In this document: piece after piece, positions 19,709 through 36,634 of the stretch | Position numbering within the stretch: the stretch's first letter is position 1 | Layout of the letters: each line of letters begins with the position of its first letter | Assembly: GCA_965198115.1 (NCBI GenBank) | Contig: OZ240241.1 | Span: 3,232,001 to 3,296,000 of the forward strand | DNA length: 64,000 nt | Direction of reading: 5' to 3' | Source of the DNA: Candidatus Latescibacterota bacterium | GTDB lineage: Bacteria > Latescibacterota > UBA2968 | Position numbers and translations under genes: made by a program | The notes under the pieces: model-generated | The model's database searches: none | What the model was told of the DNA's origin: nothing | What the model saw: only the letters and a program-made list of their open reading frames with translations

Positions 19709-20894
19709 GTGCGTATCGCCCACATTTCCGACTTTCATCTGCGACACCACCTGCCAGGTAACTCGCTGAACGGCAAGCGCCGCGGCCGTCTGATGGCCGA
19801 TCTCCTGGCTGAAGCGACGGATGAGATCAACGGGCTGGCAGCCGATCTGCTCGCGGTAACGGGGGATCTGATCGACTACCCTCTCTACGGGCTGGACGAC
19901 CCCGACCTCGGGGCGCGCGGGCTTGAAGAGATGAGACTCGTCAAGGAGATCCTCGACCGAGTCACCTGTCCCGTTGCCTGTCTCTACGGAAACCACGATC
20001 ATCCCGCGCAGTTTCGCGACCTCTTCAGCGAACAGCCGCTCGAACGCGACATCGACGGGTATCGCGTCATCACATTCCTCGATGACGAAGGCGAAGCCCA
20101 TCACCCGGAGCGCATAGACGACGAACGGAAGCGCTTCGACCAGGTCCTGAAGGACTCTGACGAACGCCCTCAGATTCACCTCCAGCACTATCAGGTCTGG
20201 CCGCATCACACGACCGGTTACCCGCACAGCTATCGTGACGCGCCGTCGCTCAAAAATGCGATCGTCCAAATCCGGTCGAGTCCGTCTCGTCCTGAGCGGC
20301 CACTATCACGGGGGCTACAACCTGTTCGAGGAAGAAGGCGTCGCATTCTCGACGGCCACGGCCTTCTGTGAGTTCCCCCACGCCTACCGCACGTACGATG
20401 TGGACGAAACCGGAATCGCCGAACGGGTCTACACCCTCGCCGACCGAATGACGCGCAAGCCGGCCATCCTCCTCGACCACGACGGGCTCCTCGACCCTCT
20501 GGCCGAATCACGCGCGGCCATCGGAGCCCTGAAGCGTCTCTCCGAAGCGGGCTACCTTCTGGTGGGAATCATTCGCCAACGATTGGGAACCACGCAAACC
20601 GTTCGAGAACTCGAAACCGGAAGCGACGGCCTTTTCGACAAGCTCAAGGATCAAGGGGTCGAAGTGAATGGCCTCATCACCCGGTTCGCGAAAGAGGAGG
20701 ATCCGAACACCCTCCTCGCGGGGTGTGAGCATCTGCTCGTCAGCCTTGCACACTCCACCCTCTTCACGGTTCTCGAAGACGAGGAAGCGGCCGGGCGCGA
20801 AGCCGGCATCGGAAAAGTCTACAGACTCGATCCAACCAACTCTGTCGAAGCATTCTGCGAGCACGCACGGGCCATCTGTGGAGCGGCCTCGTGA
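19709..20894 (+). CDS. Metallophosphoesterase fused to degenerate HAD (GmhB-like) domain; apparent +1 frameshift ~20266
   Basis: HISDFH, TGDL, GNHD, then SGHYH in the next frame, then AILLDHDG. Confidence 0.75.
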
Positions 20895-21502
20895 ACGGGC
20901 GGGTCACAGACACGTTGATACCGCTCGGGCTCGTCATCGGGCTACACGCCGCGGCGATCGGCGTCATCACACGCGGCTACCTCGGCGATTTTCACACGGA
21001 CGTGCGATTCCCGGCAGAGGAGACGATCGATCGAGCGGGCGAGGTGGAAACGATCCTCCATCACGCGCTCCAAACCGATGTCCACCAGGCGCTCGCGTCG
21101 GTTCTGGCGGCATCACACAATGAGCGTTTGCTTCGCCGATCGGTTCGACGCGTGGCTTACCTGATCCTCTCGAACACCGTGCTCACGCGATCGGGAGCCG
21201 CGACTACATTCGCCGCAAGAGCTCCCGTCCGCTTCGCAAGCGGTCAGACCTCCAAAGGGTTCGAAGCGGCATCACGCAGGTTGTTCGGGCTCCCTTCCAG
21301 CCGTCTCTCCATCGGCGAATTGGCCCTCTTGTGCCGCACGGCCGTCACCGGTCATCTACCCCCGGCCCCCGACGAGGCACTACGTGTTCGCAATCGCCTG
21401 ATCGATCGACTCGAGTCACGCGGCGTGCTCTCGAGAGCCGATGTCGATCGCGAACACGCCCGTCCCCTTACCCTCGCCCCCGACCCGAGCCCGATCTACT
21501 GA
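20891..21502 (+). CDS. Membrane-anchored degenerate transglycosylase-like protein
   Basis: GFEAASRRLFG..SRLSIGELALL and ALRVRNRLI resemble GT51 C-terminal motifs; no EDxxF. Confidence 0.55.
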   Translation: MNGRVTDTLIPLGLVIGLHAAAIGVITRGYLGDFHTDVRFPAEETIDRAGEVETILHHALQTDVHQALASVLAASHNERLLRRSVRRVAYLILSNTVLTRSGAATTFAARAPVRFASGQTSKGFEAASRRLFGLPSSRLSIGELALLCRTAVTGHLPPAPDEALRVRNRLIDRLESRGVLSRADVDREHARPLTLAPDPSPIY

Positions 21503-21585
21503 CGCCGTGCGTGTGCTCAGTACAGGGGCGAGCGCAACACATTGTTTTCACAAGGCTTAAATGCATTCGATCGCCCTTGGGCGAC

Positions 21586-22098
21586 CTACAGCTTCTTGTA
21601 ATAGGTCACATCCTCCCGTCGGATATCGAATCCCGCCTTCTCGTAGGCTCGCCTGGCCGGCGCGTGCCCTTCGTCCAGCCCCGTCTGGACGCTCGCGTAC
21701 TTGAGCCCTTCTCGCCGGAACAGATCGAGCACGACACCATACATCGCCGAACCCACACCCGACCCCTGAGTGCGGGGGTCGACGGCATTGTTTCCGATCG
21801 TGCCGAGAAAACGGTCCCGGTCGATTCGAAACGTGATGAAACCCACGATGCCGTCGTTGTCGTGCTCGACCACGAGCATCCACGCTGGATTGTGGACAAA
21901 ATGGGAGCGAATCTGATCCGCCTTCCGGTCTTTCCACGTGGGACTCAGATCGTCGTGCATCTCCTTGCCCATAATATTCGTAAAGCTGTCGTGGATACGC
22001 TCCCAGGCCTGCTTCGCAATATCACAGGCTGCATCGACGTCCGTCTCGTCCGCCTGCCGTATTGTATAGCCCTTCATCAGTTCGACCGAACGAAACAT
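21586..22098 (-). CDS. GNAT N-acetyltransferase
   Basis: AVDPRTQGSGVG, ARRAYEKAGF. Confidence 0.88.
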   Translation of the reverse strand: MFRSVELMKGYTIRQADETDVDAACDIAKQAWERIHDSFTNIMGKEMHDDLSPTWKDRKADQIRSHFVHNPAWMLVVEHDNDGIVGFITFRIDRDRFLGTIGNNAVDPRTQGSGVGSAMYGVVLDLFRREGLKYASVQTGLDEGHAPARRAYEKAGFDIRREDVTYYKKL

Positions 22099-22262
22099 CG
22101 TAGTCCCTTCGCAATTGACTTCGCGCGCGGCCGCTCTATTTTGAAGCTCGTTAGAGACGCGGTTCCACGTGACTGGCAAACACACAGTCCGCGCTCGACC
22201 CGCATCGTGTTCACTTCGCGTCTTCGTGCCTTCGTGTTCCCAACTCTGTATCGAGGCTATCT

Positions 22263-23027
22263 ATGAAACTAGGTTTCGTGACCTACCAAATCGGCAAGGA
22301 TATGGACGTCCCCACGATCATCGACGTCTGCCAGAAGACGGGTTTCCAGGGCGTTGAACTCCGAACGACGCACGCCCACGGCGTCGAATCCACACTCTCT
22401 GCCGAGGAACGACAAAAGGTGCGCAAGCAATTCGAAGACGGGGGCGTCGAAATCGCGGGGATCGGATCCGCCTTCGAGTACCACGCACTCGAAGAAGATT
22501 TGGTGAAAGAGAATATCGCGGGCACGATCGAATCGGCAAAGCTCGCCGCCGACCTCGGCTGCCCGGGCGTGAAGGTCAGACCGAACGGGCTACAGGTCGA
22601 CAACGGGGTACCCGAGGAGAAGACGCTCGAGCAGATCGGTCTCTCGATCCGCGAATGCGGGCAGGCGGCCGCAGACCTGGGTGTCGCCATTCGTGTTGAG
22701 GTCCACGGTCGTGAGACCAGCCGCCCGGACCGAATGCGGGCCATTATGGATCACGCCGACCACGACAACGTTCACATCTGCTGGAACTCCAACTTCAACG
22801 AAGTCGTCGACGGCACGATCGATGAAGCCTGGAATCTCCTCGGCCACCTGATCGGCCTCGTCCACATCACCGAGCTCTGGAAACCGGAGTATCCCTGGGC
22901 CGACTTATTCGCCCGCCTCGCGGCATCGGGCTACGAAGGATACACGCTCGCCGAGATCCCCCCCAACGACGACCCTGAGCGGGTCCTTCATTATTACAAG
23001 GCGCTATGGGACGCCTATCAACCTTAG
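22263..23027 (+). CDS. Sugar phosphate isomerase/epimerase (xylose-isomerase-like TIM barrel)
   Basis: GFQGVELR, VEVHG, LVHI, GYEGYTLAE. Confidence 0.88.
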   Translation: MKLGFVTYQIGKDMDVPTIIDVCQKTGFQGVELRTTHAHGVESTLSAEERQKVRKQFEDGGVEIAGIGSAFEYHALEEDLVKENIAGTIESAKLAADLGCPGVKVRPNGLQVDNGVPEEKTLEQIGLSIRECGQAAADLGVAIRVEVHGRETSRPDRMRAIMDHADHDNVHICWNSNFNEVVDGTIDEAWNLLGHLIGLVHITELWKPEYPWADLFARLAASGYEGYTLAEIPPNDDPERVLHYYKALWDAYQP

Positions 23028-23101
23028 AGCCGATTGGGAAATCAGGGTCATAGGAAATTGATTAATTCCACATTTCCTATCCGCATAGTGCGCTGCTCTT
23101 A

Positions 23102-24394
23102 GGGTTCGGAATAAATAAACGGTCGATCTCAATGTTGAGCCATTGGCCGGATCGTGTAGTTCCAGTCGCCGTGGAAATCGTGCGGAGTGAGATCGATTTG
23201 GGTCATCTGTTCATCGGTCACCTTGACCCCGTTAGGGTAGGGTCGCTTGTCGATCTCGGAGCGTACTCGGAGACCGGCTTGAGTGGTCGTTCCGGCAATG
23301 AGATTCACGGTTGCAGCCAGGCTGACCAGGGGCTTGCCTCGCCAGTTCATAGCGATGAAGGAGAACAGGCGATGTTCGATCTTGTTCCACTTACTAGTGC
23401 CAGGAGGGTAGTGGCATACGGTGATCGTCAGGCCAGTGCGATTCGCAAAGCGCTGCAGCTCCCACTTCCACAGCCGCGTCTTGGCGCCGTTGCTGCCGCC
23501 TGCGTCCGCCGTGATTAGCAGATGCGTCGAAGTGCCGTAGGCGGGCCGTCCCATGTTCTTCCACCAACTTCGGATCGCATTCACGGCGAAGCTGGCCGTG
23601 TCGTGATCGATACCGACACTTACCCAGCCTTCATCACGGCTCAGATCATACACTCCATAAGGGATCGCCTTGCCCTGAGCAGGCACTATGAAATCGTGTA
23701 CCTTCACACGCTCCGGGTCTCCCTTGGGTCGCCATTCTCGGCCAGGATTCTTGAAGTCGCCGATCAACTCTTTCTTCTTGGTGTCCACCGAGATAACGGG
23801 AAGGCCCTGCTGCTGCTGCTGGCTAATCCGATCATCGAGGTAAACGAACTGAGCGTCCCGATCCGGGTGTGCAGATCCCTCCCTTGTCTTCCGATTCGCC
23901 TGCAGCGTGTAATCGTGTTCGTGCAGGAGATTGGCAACGATCCTGGGGCTCACCGAATGCCCCATCGCTTGCAACTCGGCGGCCAGTTTGCGAGTGCTCT
24001 TCGATGTCCATCTCAGAGGATTGTCGTCAGGCGACCCCGCAGTCGTTGGCTCGACCAGATCATTCAGGTCCTGCCACAGCGTCGGGTCCGTGTCGGCCTT
24101 CCGCTTACGACCGCCGCCTGGACGCCGGATGCGAGCCGGGTCCAAAGGTTCGTCCGACCTCAACTCCTGAATGCCACGAAAGATCCGCTCTCTGGACATT
24201 CCTGTCGCCAGAGCCACAATCGCGATCCCACCGTGACCCAACGCTTCGGCTTCCGTGGCGGCCCACAGACGACGCGTGCGTTCCGTCAGCACCGGAGCCA
24301 AGGCTTCATACTTCGTTCGGAGAGTTTCGACGTCCACACTCCGAGCGTAAGATCATTACCTTGAAAAGTGCAGCACTTATTTCGTGGCAAACCC
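23102..24394 (-). mobile_element. ISAzo13-family IS, copy 1 (intact transposase 23129-24337)
   Basis: ISVDTKKKE, ITADAGGSNG, PPGTSKWNKIEHRLF; ends GGGTTCGGAATAAATAA/GGGTTTGCCACGAAATAA; TTA duplication. Confidence 0.93.
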
Positions 24395-24567
24395 TTAGTC
24401 ACTCTCCAACGAATTCATCAGGCAACCCGGCAGGCCACCTCTCGATCCGAGGGTTGTAAATCGGCTACCATCATACACGGACACGCCACCGGTGCGTTTG
24501 CCGAACCAAAGGTAGGCCTTAGTGCTTTCCGTGGTGGCAAAAACCGTAGTGTCCGAGAGTGGACTGA

Positions 24568-25317
24568 ATGGCTAAACGAAAGAAAGGGACCAAGCGGCGA
24601 CTCGCCGATCTCTACATCGTGGGGATCGGCATTCACGGACGTCGTCACCTTACCTGGGAAGCTGAGAACGCACTCCGCGAAAGCCGCATTGTTCTGGATG
24701 AGACCGGTCAGATTGAGATGACGAAGGAACTCAATCCCAACACAGTCGATATGGCACCTCTCTATTGGACGGGTGAAGAGAGAGAGGTCGTCTACGAGCG
24801 ACTCGTAAAGAGAGCGCTTGACGAAATTGAGATCGGGCCGGGTGTCGCAGTGGTCACCTATGGGCACCCGCTCTTTTTCGACGATATCAACCACCAGCTA
24901 CTTCGACGCTGTCGAAGACGCAAGCTTGACTGTGTCATCGTCCCGGGTATTTCGTGCCTGGATACACTGAGCGTCGATCTCGAGATCGACTACGGCGATG
25001 GCCTACAGGTTTACGAAGCGACGGACCTCGTAGATAACGGTTATCCACTCAACCCCCACGTGCACACACTCATCCTTCAGCTGGGGGAATTCAATCACTC
25101 AGAGACGTCCGATACCCTGGACCCGGCTCCGGGACGTTTGAAAAAATTGGTCGCTTTTCTTCGCAAGACCTATCGGAGAGACCAGAAAGTGGTGATCTGC
25201 TACAGCAATGACGGCTCGGAGGGCTTGTTCCTGAAGACCAGGCTCCATCGGCTGGACAGCCATTGGAGAAAGATCTTCCCGGGGACGACTCTGTATGTCC
25301 CACCTGCGGAGATTTGA
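24568..25317 (+). CDS. Borosin-type SAM-dependent peptide alpha-N-methyltransferase (tetrapyrrole methylase fold)
   Basis: VGIGI, YWTGEEREVVY (Y-x5-R-x3-Y), YGHP, PGISCLD.L..DL.ID, YEATD, TTLYVPP match OphMA/SonM motifs as recalled. Confidence 0.8.
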   Translation: MAKRKKGTKRRLADLYIVGIGIHGRRHLTWEAENALRESRIVLDETGQIEMTKELNPNTVDMAPLYWTGEEREVVYERLVKRALDEIEIGPGVAVVTYGHPLFFDDINHQLLRRCRRRKLDCVIVPGISCLDTLSVDLEIDYGDGLQVYEATDLVDNGYPLNPHVHTLILQLGEFNHSETSDTLDPAPGRLKKLVAFLRKTYRRDQKVVICYSNDGSEGLFLKTRLHRLDSHWRKIFPGTTLYVPPAEI

Positions 25318-25386
25318 ACCACCCTTGGGTCTGGCCAAATCCCGCCACACGCCTCAGACGTCAGCAACCCACAATCTTCCCGGGTC

Positions 25387-25784
25387 ATGAAAACGCGTTC
25401 GACTCTCAGCCTGCTCGGCCTCCCACTCATCTTCCTTGCTTCCACATACGCCCCCCTCGATCTGACGCAAGCCGATCGCATCCTCGTCGCCGTTGCCCTC
25501 ACCGCCGCGATGCTGTGGACGCTCGAACCGGCGACGACCCGGGCGCCTGGGGGTCGCAGAACGAGCAGGACACGCGCCCCCTCGCTCCGTTCGCCGAAAT
25601 CCCGATGGTCGAGCCCGATCAGCTGGCCGAGCTCTGGAAACCGGAGTATCCCTGGGCCGACTTATTCGCCCGCCTCGCGGCATCGGGCTACGAAGGAGAC
25701 ACCCTCGCCGAGATCCCCCCTAACGACGATCCCGAGCGGGTCCTGCACTACTACAAGGCGCTCTGGAACGCGTATCAACCGTAG
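25387..25784 (+). pseudogene. Mosaic of duplicated fragments of three neighbouring genes
   Basis: 25387-25531 ~ 32101-32245; 25530-25617 ~ 33846-33933; 25627-25784 ~ 22870-23027. Confidence 0.92.
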
Positions 25785-25822
25785 ACATCGGGGAATGGGG
25801 GAATGACATAGAACCATCCACC

Positions 25823-26341
25823 CTATGATTCCGCCATTCCTCGATGCTCTGCTTCCTCTTCTACTGACGGGCCGGCGTTCGCCTCGGGCGTCTCCGCCAT
25901 AACAGTGTCGGAGACCTGAGTCTGTAGATCACCCATTGCCGGTGAGGGCGTGAGATCCGGAACGCCGGGCACGACTCGACGTATTTCCTCCATCAACCGC
26001 AGTGGTTCGAAGGGTTTCGCCAGGATCCCACGGACGCCCAATCCCAAGAGTTGTTTGGCCACCACATCCGAGACGAATCCGGACACCACAATGATCGGCA
26101 GCATCAGTCGCCTTCGCTGAAGTGCTTCCAACAGATCGATACCGCTCGGCCCAATCATATGGATGTCGAGCAGCATCAACCCGACCTCCTCTTTCTCGAG
26201 CACGTCGATAGCCTTCACCGCGCTCGGCGCTTGTAGTGGATGATATCCAGCTGCACGCAGAATCTTCGACAAAAGTGTACGAACCTGACGGTCATCGTCT
26301 ACGATCAAGATTCGTCGTTGGCTCTCCGTGTATCTGGGCAT
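25823..26341 (-). CDS. Single-domain response regulator with acidic tail
   Basis: ILIVDDD, LLDIHM, VVSG, AKPF. Confidence 0.9.
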   Translation of the reverse strand: MPRYTESQRRILIVDDDRQVRTLLSKILRAAGYHPLQAPSAVKAIDVLEKEEVGLMLLDIHMIGPSGIDLLEALQRRRLMLPIIVVSGFVSDVVAKQLLGLGVRGILAKPFEPLRLMEEIRRVVPGVPDLTPSPAMGDLQTQVSDTVMAETPEANAGPSVEEEAEHRGMAES

Positions 26342-26370
26342 TTTGTGGCTCCTCTCTCTGACGGGTCAAC

Positions 26371-27639
26371 TCAGGCTCCAAGTTCCGACAGAAAGGCATC
26401 CGCCTTTTCGAGATCCTGCCTGGCAGTCTGGATGATGCCATCCAGGAACCTGCCACCGAGGGCAAAGCGTTTAACCACGGACTCGTCAATCTCCGACACC
26501 AGGTCTTCCTGCTTCTCCTCGACACTTAATCGATGGCACAGCACGTCCGCGAGGTGGATTAAACACACCATTCGTTGGTATCGACAGGTTCGCCAAGGCT
26601 CGTGGTGGAACAGGATGGCGTCCTGAACCGCTTCAGGGAGTTTCCATTCCCCGGCCAGGTGCCCACCCACGTCGGAATGAGTTAAACCCAGCACATCGGA
26701 TTCGTGTCTGGCGATCGTTCTTCGGTCGTCACCAACCTTCTCGAGAACCGGTTTGTAGTAGTATCCAAAGTATTGACCCAGAACGATCTGGCCGATGTCG
26801 TGGAGCATCCCGGCCAGGTAAGCCGACTCGCTCTCCATCTGAAGAAGCTTAGCGAGACTTCGAGCCACAAACGCTGTTCCAACCGAGTGCCTCCAGAACT
26901 CGCTGGCGTCAAAGGACGTCCCACTGTCGCTCTTGCCCAGACCTTCGATCACCTGAATCGACGCGACCAGGTTGGCGATTTCCTGCAAGCCGAGTAGAGT
27001 CACTGCGAGTTTGAGTGAGTCGATTCGGTTTCGAAAACCGAAGCAGGTGGAGTTGGCCAGTTTGAAGACCGTCGCAAGAAGACCTGGGTCCAGCTGAATG
27101 CGTTCGGCGATCTCGTCGCAGGACGCACCCTGTCGGGACAGTGACGTGATATCCACATAGGTGGATGGGAGCGTCGGCAATCCTTCGATCTCGCGTACAC
27201 GCTGAATCACGCTCGCCTCGATGTCATCCTTGGTCGCGATGGCACCGGACGTCAACACGCTGTGGACCCTCTCCTGCAATACCTCCTGCCCAAAGGGCTT
27301 GGCGAGGTAGGACTGTGCGCCTGCGTTCCGTGCCTTGACCACGCCTTCCTCCGATGGCTTGGCCGCTGTCAGAATCACAGGAATGTCGTTGTACTTCGGG
27401 CTGAGACCCACGAGTTCCGTCAACCGGAGACCATCGCCCGGAACGTCGATGTCGGCGATGATCGCGTGAGGGGGAGTCTGCCGAAGTCGATCCACCGCCG
27501 TGAGTGTATCCGTCGCTACATCTGGCACGTAGGTCTCCGATAGCATATCGGAGATCACCTGGCCGAAGCGGGGTCGGTCGACGACCAGGATCCGTTTCTT
27601 GTCGAACGTGCGCTGGGTTCGAGATCCAATTGCGACCAT
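26371..27639 (-). CDS. Receiver-HDOD domain signalling protein
   Basis: N-terminal REC (YLAKPF); LPTLP, DPGL..LANS, FWRHS, GMLHDIG, HSDVG..W.LP. Confidence 0.9.
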   Translation of the reverse strand: MVAIGSRTQRTFDKKRILVVDRPRFGQVISDMLSETYVPDVATDTLTAVDRLRQTPPHAIIADIDVPGDGLRLTELVGLSPKYNDIPVILTAAKPSEEGVVKARNAGAQSYLAKPFGQEVLQERVHSVLTSGAIATKDDIEASVIQRVREIEGLPTLPSTYVDITSLSRQGASCDEIAERIQLDPGLLATVFKLANSTCFGFRNRIDSLKLAVTLLGLQEIANLVASIQVIEGLGKSDSGTSFDASEFWRHSVGTAFVARSLAKLLQMESESAYLAGMLHDIGQIVLGQYFGYYYKPVLEKVGDDRRTIARHESDVLGLTHSDVGGHLAGEWKLPEAVQDAILFHHEPWRTCRYQRMVCLIHLADVLCHRLSVEEKQEDLVSEIDESVVKRFALGGRFLDGIIQTARQDLEKADAFLSELGA

Positions 27640-27989
27640 ACGATCACTCCACACCGGAACACGTCTTGAAAGGATTCGGGAAATCTGGGGGAAGGCTGAT
27701 GAACAGCAGTCGAACTGCGGAGGTGTGTTTGCAACTCGTGTGCCTGTGACAACAACGGGACACAAGCCGAGCAACGAGAGGGGGTTACTGCGATTGGTCG
27801 CTGAGATGGATCAGGCGTGTAGAATCAGAATCTGGTTCACTCCGATAGATCGATTTGTGACAGGCATCCAGAGCCTTATGAGGCGCGGTTTCCGGTTCAG
27901 CGGACTGGAACGAAATGATCCTGACCTATTGGAAAAGAGGCATTCGAGGATGTCATTCGGAAAGAATCTTGACCACTTACCGGCACTAA

Positions 27990-29280
27990 GGGTTTGCCAC
28001 GAAATAAGTGCTGCACTTTTCAAGGTAATGATCTTACGCTCGGAGTGTGGACGTCGAAACTCTCCGAACGAAGTATGAAGCCTTGGCTCCGGTGCTGACG
28101 GAACGCACGCGTCGTCTGTGGGCCGCCACGGAAGCCGAAGCGTTGGGTCACGGTGGGATCGCGATTGTGGCTCTGGCGACAGGAATGTCCAGAGAGCGGA
28201 TCTTTCGTGGCATTCAGGAGTTGAGGTCGGACGAACCTTTGGACCCGGCTCGCATCCGGCGTCCAGGCGGCGGTCGTAAGCGGAAGGCCGACACGGACCC
28301 GACGCTGTGGCAGGACCTGAATGATCTGGTCGAGCCAACGACTGCGGGGTCGCCTGACGACAATCCTCTGAGATGGACATCGAAGAGCACTCGCAAACTG
28401 GCCGCCGAGTTGCAAGCGATGGGGCATTCGGTGAGCCCCAGGATCGTTGCCAATCTCCTGCACGAACACGATTACACGCTGCAGGCGAATCGGAAGACAA
28501 GGGAGGGATCTGCACACCCGGATCGGGACGCTCAGTTCGTTTACCTCGATGATCGGATTAGCCAGCAGCAGCAGCAGGGCCTTCCCGTTATCTCGGTGGA
28601 CACCAAGAAGAAAGAGTTGATCGGCGACTTCAAGAATCCTGGCCGAGAATGGCGACCCAAGGGAGACCCGGAGCGTGTGAAGGTACACGATTTCATAGTG
28701 CCTGCTCAGGGCAAGGCGATCCCTTATGGAGTGTATGATCTGAGCCGTGATGAAGGCTGGGTAAGTGTCGGTATCGATCACGACACGGCCAGCTTCGCCG
28801 TGAATGCGATCCGAAGTTGGTGGAAGAACATGGGACGGCCCGCCTACGGCACTTCGACGCATCTGCTAATCACGGCGGACGCAGGCGGCAGCAACGGCGC
28901 CAAGACGCGGCTGTGGAAGTGGGAGCTGCAGCGCTTTGCGAATCGCACTGGCCTGACGATCACCGTATGCCACTACCCTCCTGGCACTAGTAAGTGGAAC
29001 AAGATCGAACATCGCCTGTTCTCCTTCATCGCTATGAACTGGCAAGGCAAGCCCCTGGTCAGCCTGGCTGCAACCGTGAATCTCATTGCCGGAACGACCA
29101 CTCAAGCCGGTCTCCGAGTACGCTCCGAGATCGACAAGCGACCCTACCCTAACGGGGTCAAGGTGACCGATGAACAGATGACCCAAATCGATCTCACTCC
29201 GCACGATTTCCACGGCGACTGGAACTACACGATCCGGCCAATGGCTCAACATTGAGATCGACCTTATTTATTCCGAACCC
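27990..29280 (+). mobile_element. ISAzo13-family IS, copy 2 (transposase 28047-29255)
   Basis: Near-identical to copy 1 (one R/Q change, 2-bp indel near the right end). Confidence 0.93.
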
Positions 29281-29283
29281 TTA

Positions 29284-31943
29284 GTACTCCTGTTCGCAAA
29301 TACGGTGACGTATTCTAAGCAGACTTTGCCAAGGGCGTATCGTAGAACCTGAGTTTGTCGATCATCTCCGCGAGATCTGTTCGTGTGAACTTCCATTTGA
29401 AGGGTGTGGCGATACGTCCGTAGCGTTCCTGAAAACCGAGGATTCTTGCCTCAAGCTCTTCGAGCGATGCAAATTCGATAGGTGTCAGAGCCTTGCGTTT
29501 GAGGATCGAGAAGTAGATCTCGATCTGATTGAGCCAGCTTGCGTGGATCGGAAGGTGAACGGGGTGGATGTTTGGCCACTTCCCCTGGATACGGTCGATG
29601 CATGTTTGCCCTCGGTGCGAGGAGCCATTATCCACGATGAGGTAGACTTTCTTTGCCGAGCAATAGGGTTTCCGGCTCATGATCAGGCTCAGGAGCCGGT
29701 TGAAGGGCTCGATACCCGAAGAAGACTCACAGAGACCGAAGATTCGACCATTGTGCACGTCGAGAGCAGCCAGATAGGCCAGGGCTCCTTTCCGCTCGTA
29801 TTCGTGTTTCAACGCGTGCCGCTCTGTTCGAGGCTGGCGGTAGGGTAACGTGCTTGCGAGCTCGTGCTTGAATACTGGTCTTTTCGTCGGCAGAAAGTAC
29901 ATATTCCCTCGGCCCTAAAGGCTTTCCTTGCCATTGGCGGTGATACAGATCAAGGACTCTACCTGCTTTGGTTTGGAAGTCCGGGTCCCGTGGGAAAATC
30001 CAGGAGCGATGATACCAAGGACGAATCGCGTCCTCGTTCAACCAGCGCCAGACAGTGGCGCCGCTGATCTTGGCAACGAAGCCCCTTTGCACTGCCTCGG
30101 CGGCAATCTCGGAACAGCTGAACCGCGAGAGCGGTATCCCGCTCTCGCTCGGTAGTTCACACGCCAGCGCCTTGATCTGAACGACCACCTGAGGGGGGAA
30201 AACCGGGCGGGCGCCCGGGACGAGATCTATCTTCGAGTCCCGAAAGACGCTCTTCGAAAAAGCGCTTACGCCATTTGCTTACGATCGGACGCGGGGGTCA
30301 AGTCCCATAGTCAGTTGAAAACTCATCGGGCCCCGTAGTTTGGTCAGGCTCTCTTTTGAGCATTCTGTTCGTTGTCGAGATTCAGATCTTTGTTCAGTGC
30401 TTGCCTGAGTAGGGGAAGATGTTTGTATCCGCTCACGCGTCGCAGGCGAGGTTCGATGTCGAGGAGTGCGGCAGCCACCCATCTGTGTCTCTGGGGAGAG
30501 TTGTTCCAGCGTCTGACCTTCCGAGTGAGCTCGCCGGTCCTGCTGTTGAGGGCTTCGATGCAGTTGGTGGTTCGGAAGCTTCGTTTCAGGAATGGGAGCA
30601 TACCCAGCCGGTGGAGGGTCAGGGTTTCCTCCAGGCCTTCCTCGAGGCTCGTTACGGCAGACTGATTCATCAGCTTCAGTTCGGGTTTAAGTGATTCGAG
30701 TGCGGCCTTTGCCTCCTCGTAGGTGTCGCAGTCATAGGCTTTCTGGAGCTTCCGTCGAACTCTTGGACGTTCCCTCTCCGGGAGATAGCTGACGACATTC
30801 TCGCGCTTGTGCCACTGACAGCGATGAACGCGCACATACCCTTTGAGGGCTTTGGTGACAGCACTGCGGAGTCCCTTTGAGCCGTCAAGCACAACGAGAA
30901 GGCCCTGGTCGTAGCACAGGCCTCTCCGGATGAGGTCCTGGATCAGCTGGCGGCAGATCCGTTCGTTCTCCGTCGCCGATTCGACGAAGCCCAGGGGGAT
31001 CTTCTGGCCGTCCATCGTGACCCCCGGAGCGATCACGATCTCTTCGTCGGCAAAGCTCTTTCCGTCAATGAACAGGGTCACGAAGCCGTAGTCGTCGAGG
31101 GGACGCTCCTGGAACTGCTTCAGCTTCTTCGCGGTGGCTTTGATGAACCGCCGCGAGACGGAGGACGCTGAGATACCAAACGCTTCTGGAACCGATTCGG
31201 CACAGGCCTTGTAGTTGCGGCACGAGATCCCCTTGAGAACACGAAGCAACAGCCCCTCGTCCGTCTTCTTGGGCGTCTGTAGAGCCCGGTATGCAGCCAG
31301 GGAAACCTCTGCGTCGGCCTCGACGTCGCGCACCCGGGGAACGTCTAACGGGAGCTTCTGGCCATCAGATACACGGATCCCTTCTGGCTTCCCCACCGAC
31401 GATGCGCCTGCTCCGAACCTTTGCGCGCATACCGAACGCCTGCGAGCTGCTCGACCTCCTGCTGGAGGAGGTCTGCCACTGCCTCCAGACCCAACGGGAT
31501 CAACGCCTGGATCACCGACAAACGCGTCTCCAAATCGATGACATCGCCCTCAACCTTGACTTCACCATCGCCTACAAATAGCTTCTCCATCTGGGCTCCT
31601 TTCTTACGGGTATACGCTCCTACACGTCTACCCAACGTAAGTTTGGAGCCCTCTAAGTTTCAACTACGATAGGCACAACACCGACGCGGGACATCCAACC
31701 GTTGGGCGATAATCTTGTTGGATAATCCCTCGGCGGCGAGAAGCACGATTTTCGATCGGATCACTTGATAATACGGTAACGTATATTGTCCAGCCATTCG
31801 CTCGACGAGGTCGACCCGTTCCTTCTCAGACAGTAGCACCACATAAGGCGAACGTCTTGGCATTGTTCTCCTCCTTTTGAAGGAGAACATAAGCTACAAA
31901 TAATGTTCAGAACATACGTAATAATATTTATGAACCCATGCAC
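29284..31943 (-). mobile_element. IS630-family IS, copy 3, interrupted by an IS256-family element
   Basis: Same ends and ORFs as copies 1/2; orfA split at 30295/31683. Confidence 0.92.
30296..31682 (-). mobile_element. IS256-family IS (transposase 31590-30344, frameshift ~31368)
   Basis: 8-bp TSD GACGCGGG (30288-30295, 31683-31690); IRs GGT...AGTTGAAA; FIDGK, LDGSKGL, RCQWHKREN, TTNCIE. Confidence 0.92.
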
Positions 31944-31965
31944 TAAGCCTCGTCCTATCCCCAAA

Positions 31966-32052
31966 ACCTCAGTGATCTCAGTGCCTGCCTGCCGGAGGAG
32001 GTGGGTCCTCAGTGCCCGTCCTGAGTAGGCTGCGCTGCAGCCTTACCGAAGG
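31966..32052 (+). repeat. 9-mer (ctcagtg) array with embedded short palindromic elements
   Basis: acctcagtg atctcagtg ... tcctcagtg; taggctgc-gct-gcagcctta hairpin. Confidence 0.5.
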
Positions 32053-32100
32053 AGCCTTTTTCTTCTCCGTCACACGCCACCAAGGCCTATCTTGGCACCA

Positions 32101-33456
32101 ATGAACCTGCGTGTTCTCTTCAGCCTTCTGAGTCTTCTCCTCATCGCCTGCGTTTCGGCGTTTGCGCCCCTCGATCTGACGCAAGACGATCGCATCCTCG
32201 TCGCCGTTGCCCTCACCGCCGCGATGCTGTGGACGCTCGAACCGGTCCCGATCGAGTGGACCGCGCTCGCGCTGTTGTTCGCCCTGCCCGCGCTCGGGCT
32301 CGTGACCTTTGAACAGGCCTTCGCCTCTTTCGGGGGAAAGGCGATGTGGCTCGTCATCGCCGGAATGGTCCTCAGCTCGCTGATCACCGAAACCCAGCTC
32401 GCGGGCCGACTGTCCAGATGGATTGCCGGACGCGCTGGCCACGCTGGCTTCATCCTCGTCCTGCACGTCATCGGTCTGATCCTGGCCGTGCTCATCCCAT
32501 CCGGCGTCGTGCGTGTGCTCATTATTATGCCTGTCATCGTCCGGTTGCTGGAGGATCTCGGCGAACGACCGGGTTCGAAAACGTCGGCCGCTATCGTCCT
32601 CTCCATCGTGTGTGCGACTTACTACGGGGGAACCGGCGTCCTCACCGCTTCCGTTCCGAACCTCGTAGTGATGGGCGTGCTCGAATCGCGCGGCACGCTC
32701 GTCTACTGGGCGAACTGGGCGCTCCATATGTTTCCCGTCATCGGGCTTCTCCGTGTCGCGATCGGGGCCGGATTCGTCTACTTGCTTTTTCGCCCACAAC
32801 CGCTTGCGAAGCGCGCATCATCGCCCCCTCCTGAACCGATGGGGCACAGGGAGATCACCGGGCTCATCTTGCTCGGTCTGGCGATTGGATTCTGGTCCAC
32901 CGATATCATCCACGGCATCCATCCGGCCCTCGTCGGTCTCGGCATTGCCGTTTGCTGTTTTCTCCCTCGCGTAGGCCCCCTACATATCAACGTCTTGCGA
33001 AAGATCAATTTCCCCATCGTCGTCTACATCGGAAGCGTATTCGCCATTGGTGAGGCGATGGAAGTCGTCGGCACGAGCGGTCGCATGGCAAGCGCCTTGG
33101 CCCGAGCCATCGACCTTACAGGATCGGCGGGCGAGCAGCTGTCGGCCATCACGTGGGCAGTCGCTCCCTTCAATTTCCTCGTCGACACCGCAGTCGTCGC
33201 CGGCGTCCTGACCCCCGCCCTGCTCGACCTCGGCGTCGGAGCGGGGCTTACGACGACCCAGGTCGGACTCGCCGTGGCCGTCGGCACCGGACTCGTCTTC
33301 ATCCCCTACCAGGGTGCCCCGTTCATCCTCGCCTACAGCTTTCAATACGTCAGAATGAGCCAGTTCATCGCCTTGATGGCCCTGATCTGTCTCGTCCATC
33401 TCCTTCTGCTCGTCCCGCTCAACCTGGTTTACTGGCGGTGGCTCGGTCTGTTCTGA
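32101..33456 (+). CDS. SLC13/DASS family anion permease
   Basis: WTLEPVP, LIPSGVVR, GGTGVLTASVPNL, IPYQGAP; many TM segments. Confidence 0.85.
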   Translation: MNLRVLFSLLSLLLIACVSAFAPLDLTQDDRILVAVALTAAMLWTLEPVPIEWTALALLFALPALGLVTFEQAFASFGGKAMWLVIAGMVLSSLITETQLAGRLSRWIAGRAGHAGFILVLHVIGLILAVLIPSGVVRVLIIMPVIVRLLEDLGERPGSKTSAAIVLSIVCATYYGGTGVLTASVPNLVVMGVLESRGTLVYWANWALHMFPVIGLLRVAIGAGFVYLLFRPQPLAKRASSPPPEPMGHREITGLILLGLAIGFWSTDIIHGIHPALVGLGIAVCCFLPRVGPLHINVLRKINFPIVVYIGSVFAIGEAMEVVGTSGRMASALARAIDLTGSAGEQLSAITWAVAPFNFLVDTAVVAGVLTPALLDLGVGAGLTTTQVGLAVAVGTGLVFIPYQGAPFILAYSFQYVRMSQFIALMALICLVHLLLLVPLNLVYWRWLGLF

Positions 33457-33463
33457 CCGATCC

Positions 33464-33492
33464 TTGACAGGCAGAAGTCGCACGGGTACTAT
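33464..33492 (+). promoter_or_regulatory. Sigma70 promoter of the iorA-like gene
   Basis: TTGACA, 17 bp, TACTAT. Confidence 0.65.
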
Positions 33493-33530
33493 CTCCTCAG
33501 TCCATCATCGTACCCATCGGAGACAATTCA

Positions 33531-35147
33531 ATGTCACGACAGAATGTCAATGGCGAGCAGGCGCTCGCGTGGGGGGCCGTCGAGGCGGGTGTGTCCGTCG
33601 TATCGGGCTATCCCGGATCGCCCGGCACGAACACATTCAACGCCCTCCAGGAGATGAGCAAGGATCACGGCCATCATACCGAGTGGTGCCTGAACGAAAA
33701 GATTGCCCTCGACATCGGGGTCGGCTCATCCCAGGGCGGAAAACGCGCCCTCGTGTGCTTGAAAAGCGTCGGGATGAACGTCGCCCTCGACACCCTGATG
33801 GTGGTCAATATGACCGGCGCCCACGCAGGGCTCGTCGTCCTGATGGGCGACGACCCGGGCGCCTGGGGGTCGCAGAACGAGCAGGACACGCGCCCCCTCG
33901 CACCGTTCGCCGAGATTCCGATGGTCGAGCCCGCGAGCCCCGCCGAGGGCCGCGCGACGATGAAGTGGGCGTTCGATTACTCTGAAAAACATCGGACGAT
34001 CGTCATCGTCCGCATCACCCGGAGCTACAGCGTCCAGATCGAAGAAGTGGACGCCCTCGACGCGCCGAAAACCAAACCGTCCCTCGACCCCGCTCGCGAG
34101 CCGTGGCGATTCGTCTCCGCTCTGAAAACAGTCGATCGCAGCCACAGGCGACTTCATAAAAAGCTGGCCGCGATCCGATCCGAATTCGATTCGAGCGACC
34201 TCAACACCGTGTCGGGTTCGGGGGTGAAGGGCATCATCACGACCGGATTCGTCCACACCAAGTTCCTCGAAGCCGTCGAGGGCGCCGACCTCTCCGACGT
34301 CGCAGTCCTGAAGGTCGGCACCCTGTATCCACTGCCCGAAAAAACGATCGGTGACTTCCTCGTAGACCGTGATGAGGTCGTCGTGTTCGAAGAGGTCGAT
34401 CCCTACCTCGAGGACGCCATCAAAACCATCGGCTACGACGTTGGCGCGAAGGCGAAGATCCTCGGCAAGCGAACGGGCGACGTCAACTGGGTCGGCGAGT
34501 TGTTCCGCTGGCATATGCAGGAGACACTACGGTCGTTCGCCCCGGGATTTTCGCCAGCGAAGGAATTCACAGAAGAGAATTGGGAAGAGGAGAAACCGTT
34601 CAGGAAGGGCCACTGCTCGGGTTGCCCCTACGTCGAGATCATCAAGGCGTTCCGTGATGAAGCCGGGAAGCTCGGGCAGAACCCCTTCCTCGCGGGCGAC
34701 CCGGGATGTCTCGTCATCGCCGCCGAATACCTCGACACGAAGCTTTGTATGGGGTCCGCCCTCGGGGTAGCCTCTGGACTCAACTCGTCTGGTGTCAACG
34801 AAAGGACCGTGGCGGTCATCGGCGATTCGGCCTTCTACCACGGCGGACTGCCAGCGCTCGTTCAGGCCAAAGCCACGAACGCCAACACCCTCATCCTCAT
34901 CCTCGACAACGGGGGCGCGCTCACCACGGGCGGCCAGCCAACACCGGACGAGGGCATCGACCTGGGCGACAACACAGGCCCCCAAGTAGGCATCGACACC
35001 ATCGCCCGCGCCTGCAGAGTCGACCCCATCTGGGAAGTCGCGGAAACGGATTCCGACGAACGAATGCGGGAAGTCTTCCGCGAAGCCCTTCAGAACGACA
35101 CACTGAGTATGGTCATCCTGCGGAAGGCGTGTAAGCCGGTCGATTGA
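33531..35147 (+). CDS. iorA: Indolepyruvate ferredoxin oxidoreductase alpha-subunit-like TPP enzyme
   Basis: GYPGSP, NEKIAL, KSVGMNVALD, DDPG..SQNEQD, CSGCP, GDSAFYH..LDN. Confidence 0.82.
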   Translation: MSRQNVNGEQALAWGAVEAGVSVVSGYPGSPGTNTFNALQEMSKDHGHHTEWCLNEKIALDIGVGSSQGGKRALVCLKSVGMNVALDTLMVVNMTGAHAGLVVLMGDDPGAWGSQNEQDTRPLAPFAEIPMVEPASPAEGRATMKWAFDYSEKHRTIVIVRITRSYSVQIEEVDALDAPKTKPSLDPAREPWRFVSALKTVDRSHRRLHKKLAAIRSEFDSSDLNTVSGSGVKGIITTGFVHTKFLEAVEGADLSDVAVLKVGTLYPLPEKTIGDFLVDRDEVVVFEEVDPYLEDAIKTIGYDVGAKAKILGKRTGDVNWVGELFRWHMQETLRSFAPGFSPAKEFTEENWEEEKPFRKGHCSGCPYVEIIKAFRDEAGKLGQNPFLAGDPGCLVIAAEYLDTKLCMGSALGVASGLNSSGVNERTVAVIGDSAFYHGGLPALVQAKATNANTLILILDNGGALTTGGQPTPDEGIDLGDNTGPQVGIDTIARACRVDPIWEVAETDSDERMREVFREALQNDTLSMVILRKACKPVD

Positions 35148-35207
35148 CACGAGCGGGCGAAGGGGCGATAGGGCGTGGCATGGAAATGGTCAATATCAGG
35201 TTACGAG

Positions 35208-35241
35208 AGAAGCCCCCTTTGGGTATACCAGAGGGGGCTTA
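35208..35241. terminator. Hairpin between convergent genes
   Basis: aagccccctttgg...ccagagggggctt. Confidence 0.6.
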
Positions 35242-35320
35242 CTTATTGTGATAGACCGAGCAGGGTCACTTCGAGTGGAGTCGAGAAGTCCTCCCCTCAA
35301 CCTCAGTTCTCTCAGTGTCC

Positions 35321-36634
35321 TCAGTGGCTGCCCTGTTTTTGGTAGTGTTCTCCCACCTTCCTGAACGCCTCGACGAATTGATCCACAACGCCATCCGCAG
35401 GATCTGTCAGCACAGGTAACGTCAGCATCCGCGCCAGCGCCTCGCGTGTTTGGGGGAACTCGTCAGGTTCGTACCCTTCGTAGCCTTCCCACAGCGGACC
35501 GCGTCCGTGGGTGTAAAGATCGAACCCGCGCGCGAACAACGGCATCATATGGTAGGGCTGATGGCCGCTCGGTCCGATGCGATCGGGCACGACGGCTCCC
35601 TCCTTGACATTCACGCCTTCGGCCTTCAGCGCCGCGCAATAGTCCGCCCGCGGCAATCCGCCCAGGTCCTCCGGCCAATAGCGTGCCTGCATTCCGCTGT
35701 ACCAGCCACCCGGCTCCGCTTTCGGGTAGACGTAGAGCGGATCGATCCCGGGAACGTCCTCGAGCCCCTGGTTCAGGGCTCTCGCGTAAGCGGAACGCTT
35801 TTCGTTCTGCTCTTGAACGCGCGTCAACTGCACTTTCGCGATCGCCAGTCCCAACGGATGCGCCCGAAAGTTCATCCCCAGCCCGAACGGTGCCAGCTGA
35901 GCGTGTCTAGAATCCTTCAGCTCATCCGCCAGACCCTCCCGACCCCCGTGCGCGAACAGGAGCACGCGCTCGTAGAGATAGCGATCCATCGTCGCCACCA
36001 TTCCAGCCTCGCCTCCACACACCGGCTTGCCGCTGCCCGGTACCCCCTGGAAGCTGAACGCCCCCATCGCACCGATCGTCCCGACGCACCTTCCGTCGAA
36101 CTTCGCACCGTGCGCGTGCGAACAATCCTCGACCACCGGGATGCCGTGGCGATCGGCCACATCCATAATCCCGGCCAGGTCGCAGATGTTGCCACCCCAG
36201 TGAACGGCCACGATCGCCTTCGTATGCTTCGTGATCCGTCGCTCGACATCTTCGGGGTCGATCAGGAACGTCTTCGGGTCGATCTCGGCGAACACGGGAC
36301 GCGCGCCCAGCTGATACGTCGGCGCCACCGAACAGATCCACGTAAAGTTCGGATGAATCACCTCGTCACCCGGCCCGACACCCAGCGCGAAATAGGCCGA
36401 CCACAGCGTCGACGTCCCGTTGTGCTGTGACACGGCGTAGTTCGCACCGATCATCTCGGCGAACGCACCCTCCACGTCGCGCGCCAGCTTCTGCCCCTCC
36501 GACCAGACCGCATTCGTCGCAACCGTCCGCTCGACCTCCGCCACCATCGCCGCCGTCATCCCCCCCCACCGATCCAGCTCGTCGATCGTCACAGCCTTGG
36601 GTCCACCCTGTGATGCCAGTTTCTCAGCCATCAT
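35321..36634 (-). CDS. DegT/DnrJ/EryC1/StrS PLP-dependent aminotransferase
   Basis: NGTS, GVGPGDEVI, VEDCSHAHGA, FSFQ...K...GEAG. Confidence 0.92.
   Translation of the reverse strand: MMAEKLASQGGPKAVTIDELDRWGGMTAAMVAEVERTVATNAVWSEGQKLARDVEGAFAEMIGANYAVSQHNGTSTLWSAYFALGVGPGDEVIHPNFTWICSVAPTYQLGARPVFAEIDPKTFLIDPEDVERRITKHTKAIVAVHWGGNICDLAGIMDVADRHGIPVVEDCSHAHGAKFDGRCVGTIGAMGAFSFQGVPGSGKPVCGGEAGMVATMDRYLYERVLLFAHGGREGLADELKDSRHAQLAPFGLGMNFRAHPLGLAIAKVQLTRVQEQNEKRSAYARALNQGLEDVPGIDPLYVYPKAEPGGWYSGMQARYWPEDLGGLPRADYCAALKAEGVNVKEGAVVPDRIGPSGHQPYHMMPLFARGFDLYTHGRGPLWEGYEGYEPDEFPQTREALARMLTLPVLTDPADGVVDQFVEAFRKVGEHYQKQGSH

Follow-up and report, generated by a model that had tools for sequence, protein, structure and literature searches.

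A divergent borosin-like methyltransferase, likely acquired horizontally, in a Latescibacterota genome

The locus and the acquisition of the gene

The window, i.e. the whole stretch of 64,000 nucleotides analysed here, derives from the genome of a Candidatus Latescibacterota bacterium, which consists of one contig of 8.43 Mb and is rated 100% complete. It contains an intact gene for a borosin-like methyltransferase, located together with insertion sequences (IS) and receiver-domain (REC) genes between host genes which mark the borders of an insertion. In the following list, BBD denotes the borosin-binding domain.

22263..23027 (+): host AP_endonuc_2 gene (isomerase-like TIM barrel); left border of the insertion
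23098..24399 (-): first copy (copy 1) of an ISAzo13-family element, flanked by a TTA/TTA pair of its own; transposase at 23129-24337
24568..25317 (+): borosin-like SAM-dependent methyltransferase, 249 aa, intact and stand-alone (no BBD, core or MazG)
24763..24795 (+): Y66-W67-T-G-E-E-R72-x3-Y76 within the enzyme, equivalents of SonM Y58/R67/Y71 plus the YWTG signature of its clade (alignment)
24859..24885 (+): Y98-GHPLFF-D105-D106 motif within the enzyme (alignment and clade residue counts)
25387..25785 (+): scar of host-gene fragments
25823..26341 (-): receiver-domain protein of a native paralogous family
26371..27774 (-): REC-HDOD protein
27985..29284 (+): second copy (copy 2) of the ISAzo13-family element, in the opposite orientation to the first
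29277..31947 (-): other insertion sequences present in multiple copies, with DDE_3 and Mutator-family transposases
32104..35147 (+): right border of the insertion, formed by host genes for a CitMHS/Na-sulphate transporter and a TPP-dependent oxidoreductase

The open reading frame of the enzyme comprises 249 codons of protein with zero internal stops. Short-read contigs cover positions 24371-25502 with 0 differences (two runs of one sample), although this agreement is not independent support, since the sample may be the assembly's own source. No sigma-70 promoter or terminator match was found at 24300-25900 of the window, and no Rfam match at 20000-36000. No RNA dataset was listed as containing the gene, which carries no information about its expression.

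In the genomes of two relatives (G001 and G002), the genes for the isomerase, the DHDPS-family protein, the transporter and the oxidoreductase follow one another without interruption. In the source genome, approximately 9 kb composed of IS, the methyltransferase, the scar, the REC and REC-HDOD genes and further IS replaces the DHDPS-family gene, for which no orthologue was found in this genome (best match 32%). The methyltransferase gene was found in none of the 167 other genomes of the phylum, nor in 60 relatives. By eye, the DNA directly after its stop codon is similar to the leader of the transporter gene itself, and the enzyme thus looks like a single-gene insertion. The sequence-only reading had proposed a mobile single-gene borosin. 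Acquisition as a single gene by horizontal transfer is indeed likely, judging from this distribution and from the insertion into an operon that is contiguous in the relatives, but self-mobility is unsupported, as the flanking ISAzo13-family element has 74 full, near-identical copies in the genome. The outer flanks of the two copies in the window match (TTA/TTA), and the element generally targets TTA/TAA; given the copy number and the separate TTA/TTA flanks of copy 1, however, a composite transposon cannot be claimed. The GC3 of the enzyme gene (0.64) is lower than that of two host genes (0.73 and 0.76) but similar to that of the REC genes (0.62 and 0.69), and was therefore left out as evidence of foreign origin. 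Phage records and viral contigs gave no match to the enzyme, and plasmids gave distant matches throughout, at 34% identity or less.

The signalling genes downstream had been suggested as a functional context for the enzyme, a link which is not supported: they are native paralogues (the source genome encodes four paralogues of the REC-HDOD protein at E<1e-100), and no REC homologue stands beside the enzyme in any of the 16 clade locus records. They were accordingly rejected as partners. The 139-aa open reading frame at 25387-25806 was likewise rejected as a precursor, being a scar of host-gene pieces. These pieces comprise the 5' end of the transporter gene (25406-25531), a fragment of the oxidoreductase gene (25530-25617) and the 3' end of the isomerase gene (25606-25785), at 84-98% identity to the neighbouring host genes, in permuted order and with overlaps of 2 and 12 nt at the joins; the scar resembles what would be left of a duplicated operon after its collapse. 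The source genome also displays a large IS expansion, represented in the window at 23098-31947, with dozens of DDE_3- and Mutator-type copies in addition to those of ISAzo13, and its 8.4 Mb compare with about 3.6-6.5 Mb in its own family.

A borosin-type enzyme in a separate lineage

The enzyme resembles borosin enzymes much more closely than chance would allow. Its sole Pfam family is TP_methylase, of the PF00590 superfamily common to the tetrapyrrole methylases (CysG/CobA, CbiF and RsmI) and the YabN methylase-MazG fusion (NF052436). In a phmmer search of the PDB, SonM was the best match (E 7e-16), and the solved-structure matches at E<=0.01 were borosin enzymes in 25 cases out of 25. A family profile derived from 49 close homologues of the window enzyme assigned 123 bits to dbOphM, compared to at most 28 bits for tetrapyrrole methylases of the cobalamin and RsmI types. 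The predicted fold (AlphaFold, pLDDT 94.3) is that of a borosin methyltransferase, nearer to SonM/OphMA (Z 28.6 and 28.2; for SonM, Z 28.6, TM 0.87 and rmsd 1.8 Å over 234 aligned residues) than to the tetrapyrrole methylases CysG/CobA, CbiF and RsmI (Z at most 17.7). The enzyme scores far below every equivalog cut-off of the latter (CysG/CobA/Cbi and RsmI), and its weak YabN match (56 bits versus a cut-off of 525) extends over the N-terminal half of that model, the methylase half, for which a SonM-like control obtains 46 bits. No MazG domain is fused to the enzyme; a host MazG-like gene lies elsewhere, at 3,597,668 of the source genome. The earlier assignment to the borosin type, rather than to the CobA/CysG type, was thus upheld by the profile scores, the fold comparison and the tree split given below.

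Y66, R72, Y76 and the Y98-GHP motif align with SonM Y58, R67, Y71 and Y93, at an overall identity of 26%, and the second borosin motif, DCLFAD (the second model of the BorosinMT rule), reads DTLSVD, with 3 of 6 positions equal when the motif letters are compared. The description of an intact, stand-alone enzyme with borosin motifs stands. Its basic N-terminus (MAKRKKGTKRR), also remarked upon earlier, is present as noted but is shared by only 9 of 64 clade proteins, and with a median pI of 6.8 in the clade, neither a basic surface nor a basic N-terminus is a family trait.

With the query counted, the homologue search yielded 53 proteins, which are mostly 233-284 aa long and 36-67% identical, and a wider search added 150 rows. 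In a FastTree analysis of 226 rows, the window enzyme falls within a clade of 75 rows (support 0.989), whereas SonM-like, OphMA-like, Legionella, haloarchaeal and BBD-fused enzymes form a separate clade of 97 rows (0.999), the group labels having been checked. A smaller tree of 36 rows, in which homologues of characterised enzymes serve as markers and no YabN row is included (a full-length YabN over the cut-off was not found for use as an outgroup), places the window enzyme outside the SonM/OphMA-like group (100/98) and apart from the CysG/RsmI-type outgroups (100/99); its deep branches are weak (52/93 for the clade and 79/97 for the canonical-like group). Members of the clade are 214-284 aa long, BBD-free, and carry the signature YWTG…YGHPxFFDD. 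Among longer proteins, two distant fusions but no fused form of the clade were encountered, which is weak evidence, and further sampling near genomes with the enzyme contributed one half gene (L087), the rest being canonical-type matches. This lineage of 75 sequences is what is new in the present analysis, the orphan status itself having already been published.

In comparing the 75 clade rows with the 97 canonical-like rows, both of which include near-duplicates, the two tyrosines are found to be preserved (Y66 in 74/75 versus 91/97, Y76 in 74/75 versus 92/97), while the catalytic arginine (R72) is kept in 26/75 versus 91/97 and the Trp of the SonM bottom lock in 0/75 versus 69/97. D105 occurs in 71/75 clade rows versus 8/97, and W67 (70/75), R40 (71/75) and T133 are also near-invariant in the clade. 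The arginine is retained in all members of the 10-row branch of the window enzyme, yet in only 1 of 15 rows of another branch, the repeat-linked one described below.

Such a profile raises the alternative of a borosin-like fold with changed chemistry, whereby the enzyme would methylate a side chain (e.g. the Lys or Asp/Glu of [DE]IKxP), a peptide terminus or a small molecule. The variable arginine, the missing lock Trp, the new near-invariant residues and a YabN methylase-half score a little above that of the SonM-like control all favour it. Both backbone-gripping tyrosines are nevertheless present in nearly every row, the window enzyme and its branch keep R72, and the predicted structure fits closely on SonM, so that this alternative appears quite improbable.

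The type IV split borosin SonM/SonA of Shewanella oneidensis (PDB 7LTC; PMC8429565) likewise employs a stand-alone methyltransferase of ~250 aa, with the same predicted fold. Mutants of SonM at Y58, R67, Y71 and Y93, equivalents of which are all present in the window enzyme, were reported to be slowed 2- to 100-fold or, in the case of R67A, inactive (PMC8429565). The two systems differ in that the YGHPGVF and DCLFAD-type motifs of the SonM type correspond to YGHPxFFDD and DTLSxD in the window lineage, where the lock Trp is absent and the arginine variable. SonM/SonA also has a BBD precursor, of which there is none at the window locus or at the 14 clade loci.

Partner genes of relatives and the search for a precursor

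The gene context of the relatives was scanned at 25 loci, which include 14 distinct loci of the clade, many of them short. A custom BBD profile matched at none of these 14. In one branch, however, unannotated Pro-rich open reading frames with [DE]IKxP repeats are located directly upstream of the enzyme in three of four loci, all three from gammaproteobacterial metagenome-assembled genomes:

L002:2760-2960: Pro-rich [DE]IKxP open reading frame, unannotated, 66 aa, 4 units
L003:7328-7900: Pro-rich [DE]IKxP open reading frame, unannotated, 190 aa, 18 units
L006:4213-4485: Pro-rich [DE]IKxP open reading frame, unannotated, 90 aa, 6 units

Among the repeat units, third codon positions vary while the residues are constant, and a purine-rich leader precedes each frame. 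The L006 enzyme is a partial gene, placed in the branch by 67-70% identity; the fourth locus, L024, was assigned to the branch only by eye and carries a glycine-zipper peptide in place of the repeats. From their sequence and position, the three repeat frames are candidate BBD-less precursors.

A different partner accompanies the enzyme in L010, L014 and L017, the branch nearest to the window enzyme with known context (SH-aLRT 95, quick tree); the closest relative, P0002, has no known gene context. In 3/3 of these loci, a membrane receptor with a class III cyclase-like domain starts at most 15 nt downstream of the enzyme's stop codon:

L010:2344-3834: cyclase-like receptor
L017:2117-3652: cyclase-like receptor
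L014:8690-10711: receptor with a degenerate cyclase and a TIR domain

The layout of the receptor family is a transmembrane segment, an outer domain of no known family, a second transmembrane segment and the cyclase-like domain. Pfam and NCBIfam do not recognise the family as cyclases, and only four homologues were found (P0208-P0211). In a fold comparison, the cytoplasmic part of P0210 resembles the cyclase Cya2 (Z 16.8, rmsd 3.5 Å, 182 aligned residues), and an Atlas search with P0210 gave leads to cyclases at scores of only 0.82-0.90. L010, L017 and P0210 carry what we take to be both metal-binding aspartates of class III cyclases, which are degenerate in L014. PADLOC returned no match for the enzyme and only TIR matches for the L014 receptor, which leaves a defence role without support.

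The other seven clade loci hold SET-domain proteins (two loci), unrelated or uncharacterised membrane proteins (three) or little context; by eye, the membrane proteins of L005 and L018 look alike. The SET-domain proteins adjoin enzymes of one sub-branch, downstream in one case and upstream in the other (L008:1408-1887 and L013:2855-3271). Membrane TPR proteins flank the enzyme, often convergently, at the gammaproteobacterial loci L002, L003, L013, L015, L052 and L087, and such proteins may simply be abundant in these genomes.

The frequency of signalling and protein-modifying neighbours suggests a further possibility, namely that the lineage left peptide natural products and became a protein modifier in signalling. 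It would methylate backbone amides within flexible regions of ordinary proteins such as the cyclase-like receptor, and in the source genome a host protein. The 14 distinct loci have no BBD and, in 11 cases, no repeat peptide; their neighbours include the receptor (three loci), SET-domain proteins (two, L008 and L011/L013) and a GNAT protein (L014), and two of the four receptor homologues are presumed to lie on the same contigs as the clade enzymes P0004 and P0041, with which they agree in the length of their longest contigs (434,524 and 4,017). The receptor itself has no conserved flexible tail to serve as a core and was not found in the source genome. Furthermore, canonical borosin clusters also carry membrane cyclases, with GGDEF domains in 56% of them (Imani et al., 10.1101/2021.12.24.474128), yet methylate a small precursor, and adjacency to a receptor does not therefore name the substrate. 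A role of the enzyme as a modifier of signalling proteins thus seems unlikely.

At the window locus itself, the three spacers at 23028-23098, 24398-24567 and 25318-25386 hold no candidate precursor frame, even with the upstream IS removed in silico, in agreement with the earlier observation that none lies nearby. In terms of the borosin gene cluster types (0-X), the locus is not such a cluster, since both a BBD and a fused or neighbouring core peptide were absent on testing. A precursor encoded at a distance had been proposed instead. The source genome gave no match to LigA, and a custom BBD profile constructed from 25 segments of relatives found nothing better than E 0.02, in what is presumably a nitrile hydratase alpha-like protein. 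As a control, the profile recovered four held-out BBDs at E<1e-6 (L055, L056, L058 and L063); it missed the fused BBD of L062 (E 2) and detected none at the Bradyrhizobium locus L060 or the Legionella locus L061. A distant BBD precursor was thus not found in this genome. Nor did searches of it reveal a [DE]IKxP repeat peptide, the receptor of the nearest branch or, apart from weak GNAT matches, the relatives' other partner genes, and no convincing precursor was identified among its 54 repeat-containing open reading frames, most of which are DNA repeats in several frames. Besides the window enzyme it codes for one other PF00590 protein, which we take to be of the CysG type.

That the enzyme is a true borosin and modifies, in trans, a precursor from another part of the genome is, in light of these searches, a doubtful explanation. 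Distal and BBD-less Legionellales precursors have been discussed (10.1101/2024.01.09.574750), and a short precursor without repeats would escape detection here. Against this, neither a BBD nor a repeat candidate emerged, and the lone arrival of the enzyme in the phylum implies that a resident precursor would earlier have had no enzyme. The opposite suspicion, that close homologues keep an adjacent precursor which was simply lost at this locus, proved half right: relatives do have adjacent partner genes, but these are not BBD precursors.

Proposed function and relation to known borosins

The explanation we favour, with a probability of roughly one half, is that the window encodes an intact, likely horizontally acquired and divergent borosin-like methyltransferase, a predicted backbone methylase which is probably stranded without its native partner. 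By analogy with SonM and OphMA, it probably works like a borosin methyltransferase and would methylate the backbone amide nitrogens of a peptide in extended form, with SAM as the methyl donor. Y66, R72 and Y76 would grip the backbone of the peptide and stabilise the amide once deprotonated; this amide would then attack the SAM methyl group, with Y98 aiding SAM binding. Borosin enzymes of solved structure use a BBD leader for docking. The window lineage, by contrast, may read its substrate directly in the groove, with specificity possibly provided by D105/D106 and W67. The upstream [DE]IKxP peptide would serve as substrate in the repeat-linked branch, while the branch of the window enzyme appears to travel with the class III cyclase-like receptor, in a layout like that of the published borosin-GGDEF pairing. 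The window copy seems to have arrived without this receptor, and would thus likely have no dedicated substrate.

The strongest counterpoints to this stranded backbone methylase are that the arginine is lost in the very branch for which substrates can be proposed, and that the contexts are few, with 14 distinct loci in all. As R67A inactivates SonM (PMC8429565), retention of the arginine in 1 of 15 rows renders backbone methylation less certain in the repeat-linked branch. The absence of the bottom-lock Trp throughout the clade also weighs against it, as does the possible escape of a precursor with neither BBD nor repeats; the intact frame and full set of key residues fit a recent arrival but also continued use.

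A bolder reading, which is tentative and improbable on present evidence, views the clade as a deep borosin offshoot which dropped the docking domain, lost the arginine in many members and became a leader-independent backbone methylase. One branch would modify Pro-rich [DE]IKxP repeat peptides, a new substrate class, and that of the window enzyme would tune the membrane class III nucleotide-cyclase (or TIR) receptor. If true, bacterial signalling would make use of backbone N-methylation to regulate proteins.

Neither orphan status nor mobility nor proximity to signalling genes is new among borosins. Lee et al. reported 733 borosin enzymes without a called precursor, and also described horizontal transfer, groups that branch deeply and Legionellales clusters without a BBD (10.1101/2024.01.09.574750), and Imani et al. 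described the association with GGDEF domains. The window lineage has BBD loss, orphan status and horizontal transfer in common with the former, but the Legionella plasmid enzyme L061, the only one in our trees, falls outside its clade, and the BBD-less state of the two therefore looks separate in origin. Repeat cores mark the precursors of split borosins of types V-VIII (RceA DVIELSSGGEL, SliA TEVX and AinA DVDV; 10.1101/2021.12.24.474128), which, like L002, L003 and L006, have a repeat precursor with an acid-aliphatic dipeptide beside the enzyme. Those enzymes carry a fused BBD, unlike the window lineage; the clade repeats differ in being Pro/Lys-rich, and the window copy has no repeat partner. 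SonM-type clusters often hold a membrane GGDEF cyclase, whereas the neighbour in the nearest relatives is adenylyl/guanylyl-like, of class III. In the borosin literature searched, no description was found of the clade, its repeats or the class III cyclase pairing; supplementary datasets may list the enzymes, and the motif is not text-searchable.

There is demand for borosin enzymes as tools to methylate peptide backbones, and a small, stand-alone, BBD-less lineage could methylate peptides without a leader. The three pairs of repeat peptide and enzyme offer a direct test, including whether the "essential" arginine can be lost, and the receptor pairing parallels the unexplained borosin-GGDEF link as a second, independent case. 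The window copy, its partners missing, is the least informative member of the clade.

The survey also encountered other borosin-like arrangements. A separate actinobacterial-type group (L007 and L019-L026) has small BBD precursors ending in (V/I)(I/L)RM(L/I/A)xx; its enzymes also read YGHPxVFDD, with the Arg sometimes replaced by Gln. In L055, L056 and L088, type-0-like enzymes are apparently split into a BBD-containing protein of 230-280 aa followed by an adjacent methyltransferase frame. Another deep-branching borosin-like enzyme, with no BBD match nearby and followed by a 73-aa helical frame, is located on the Bradyrhizobium plasmid of L060 (NZ_CP022220.1) and on six similar plasmids. Borosin-like domains are further fused to a radical SAM domain (P0076) and to DUF6065 (P0203, of the pair P0100/P0203) and, by eye, to a 2OG-Fe oxygenase (P0085) and an asparaginase-like domain (P0150).
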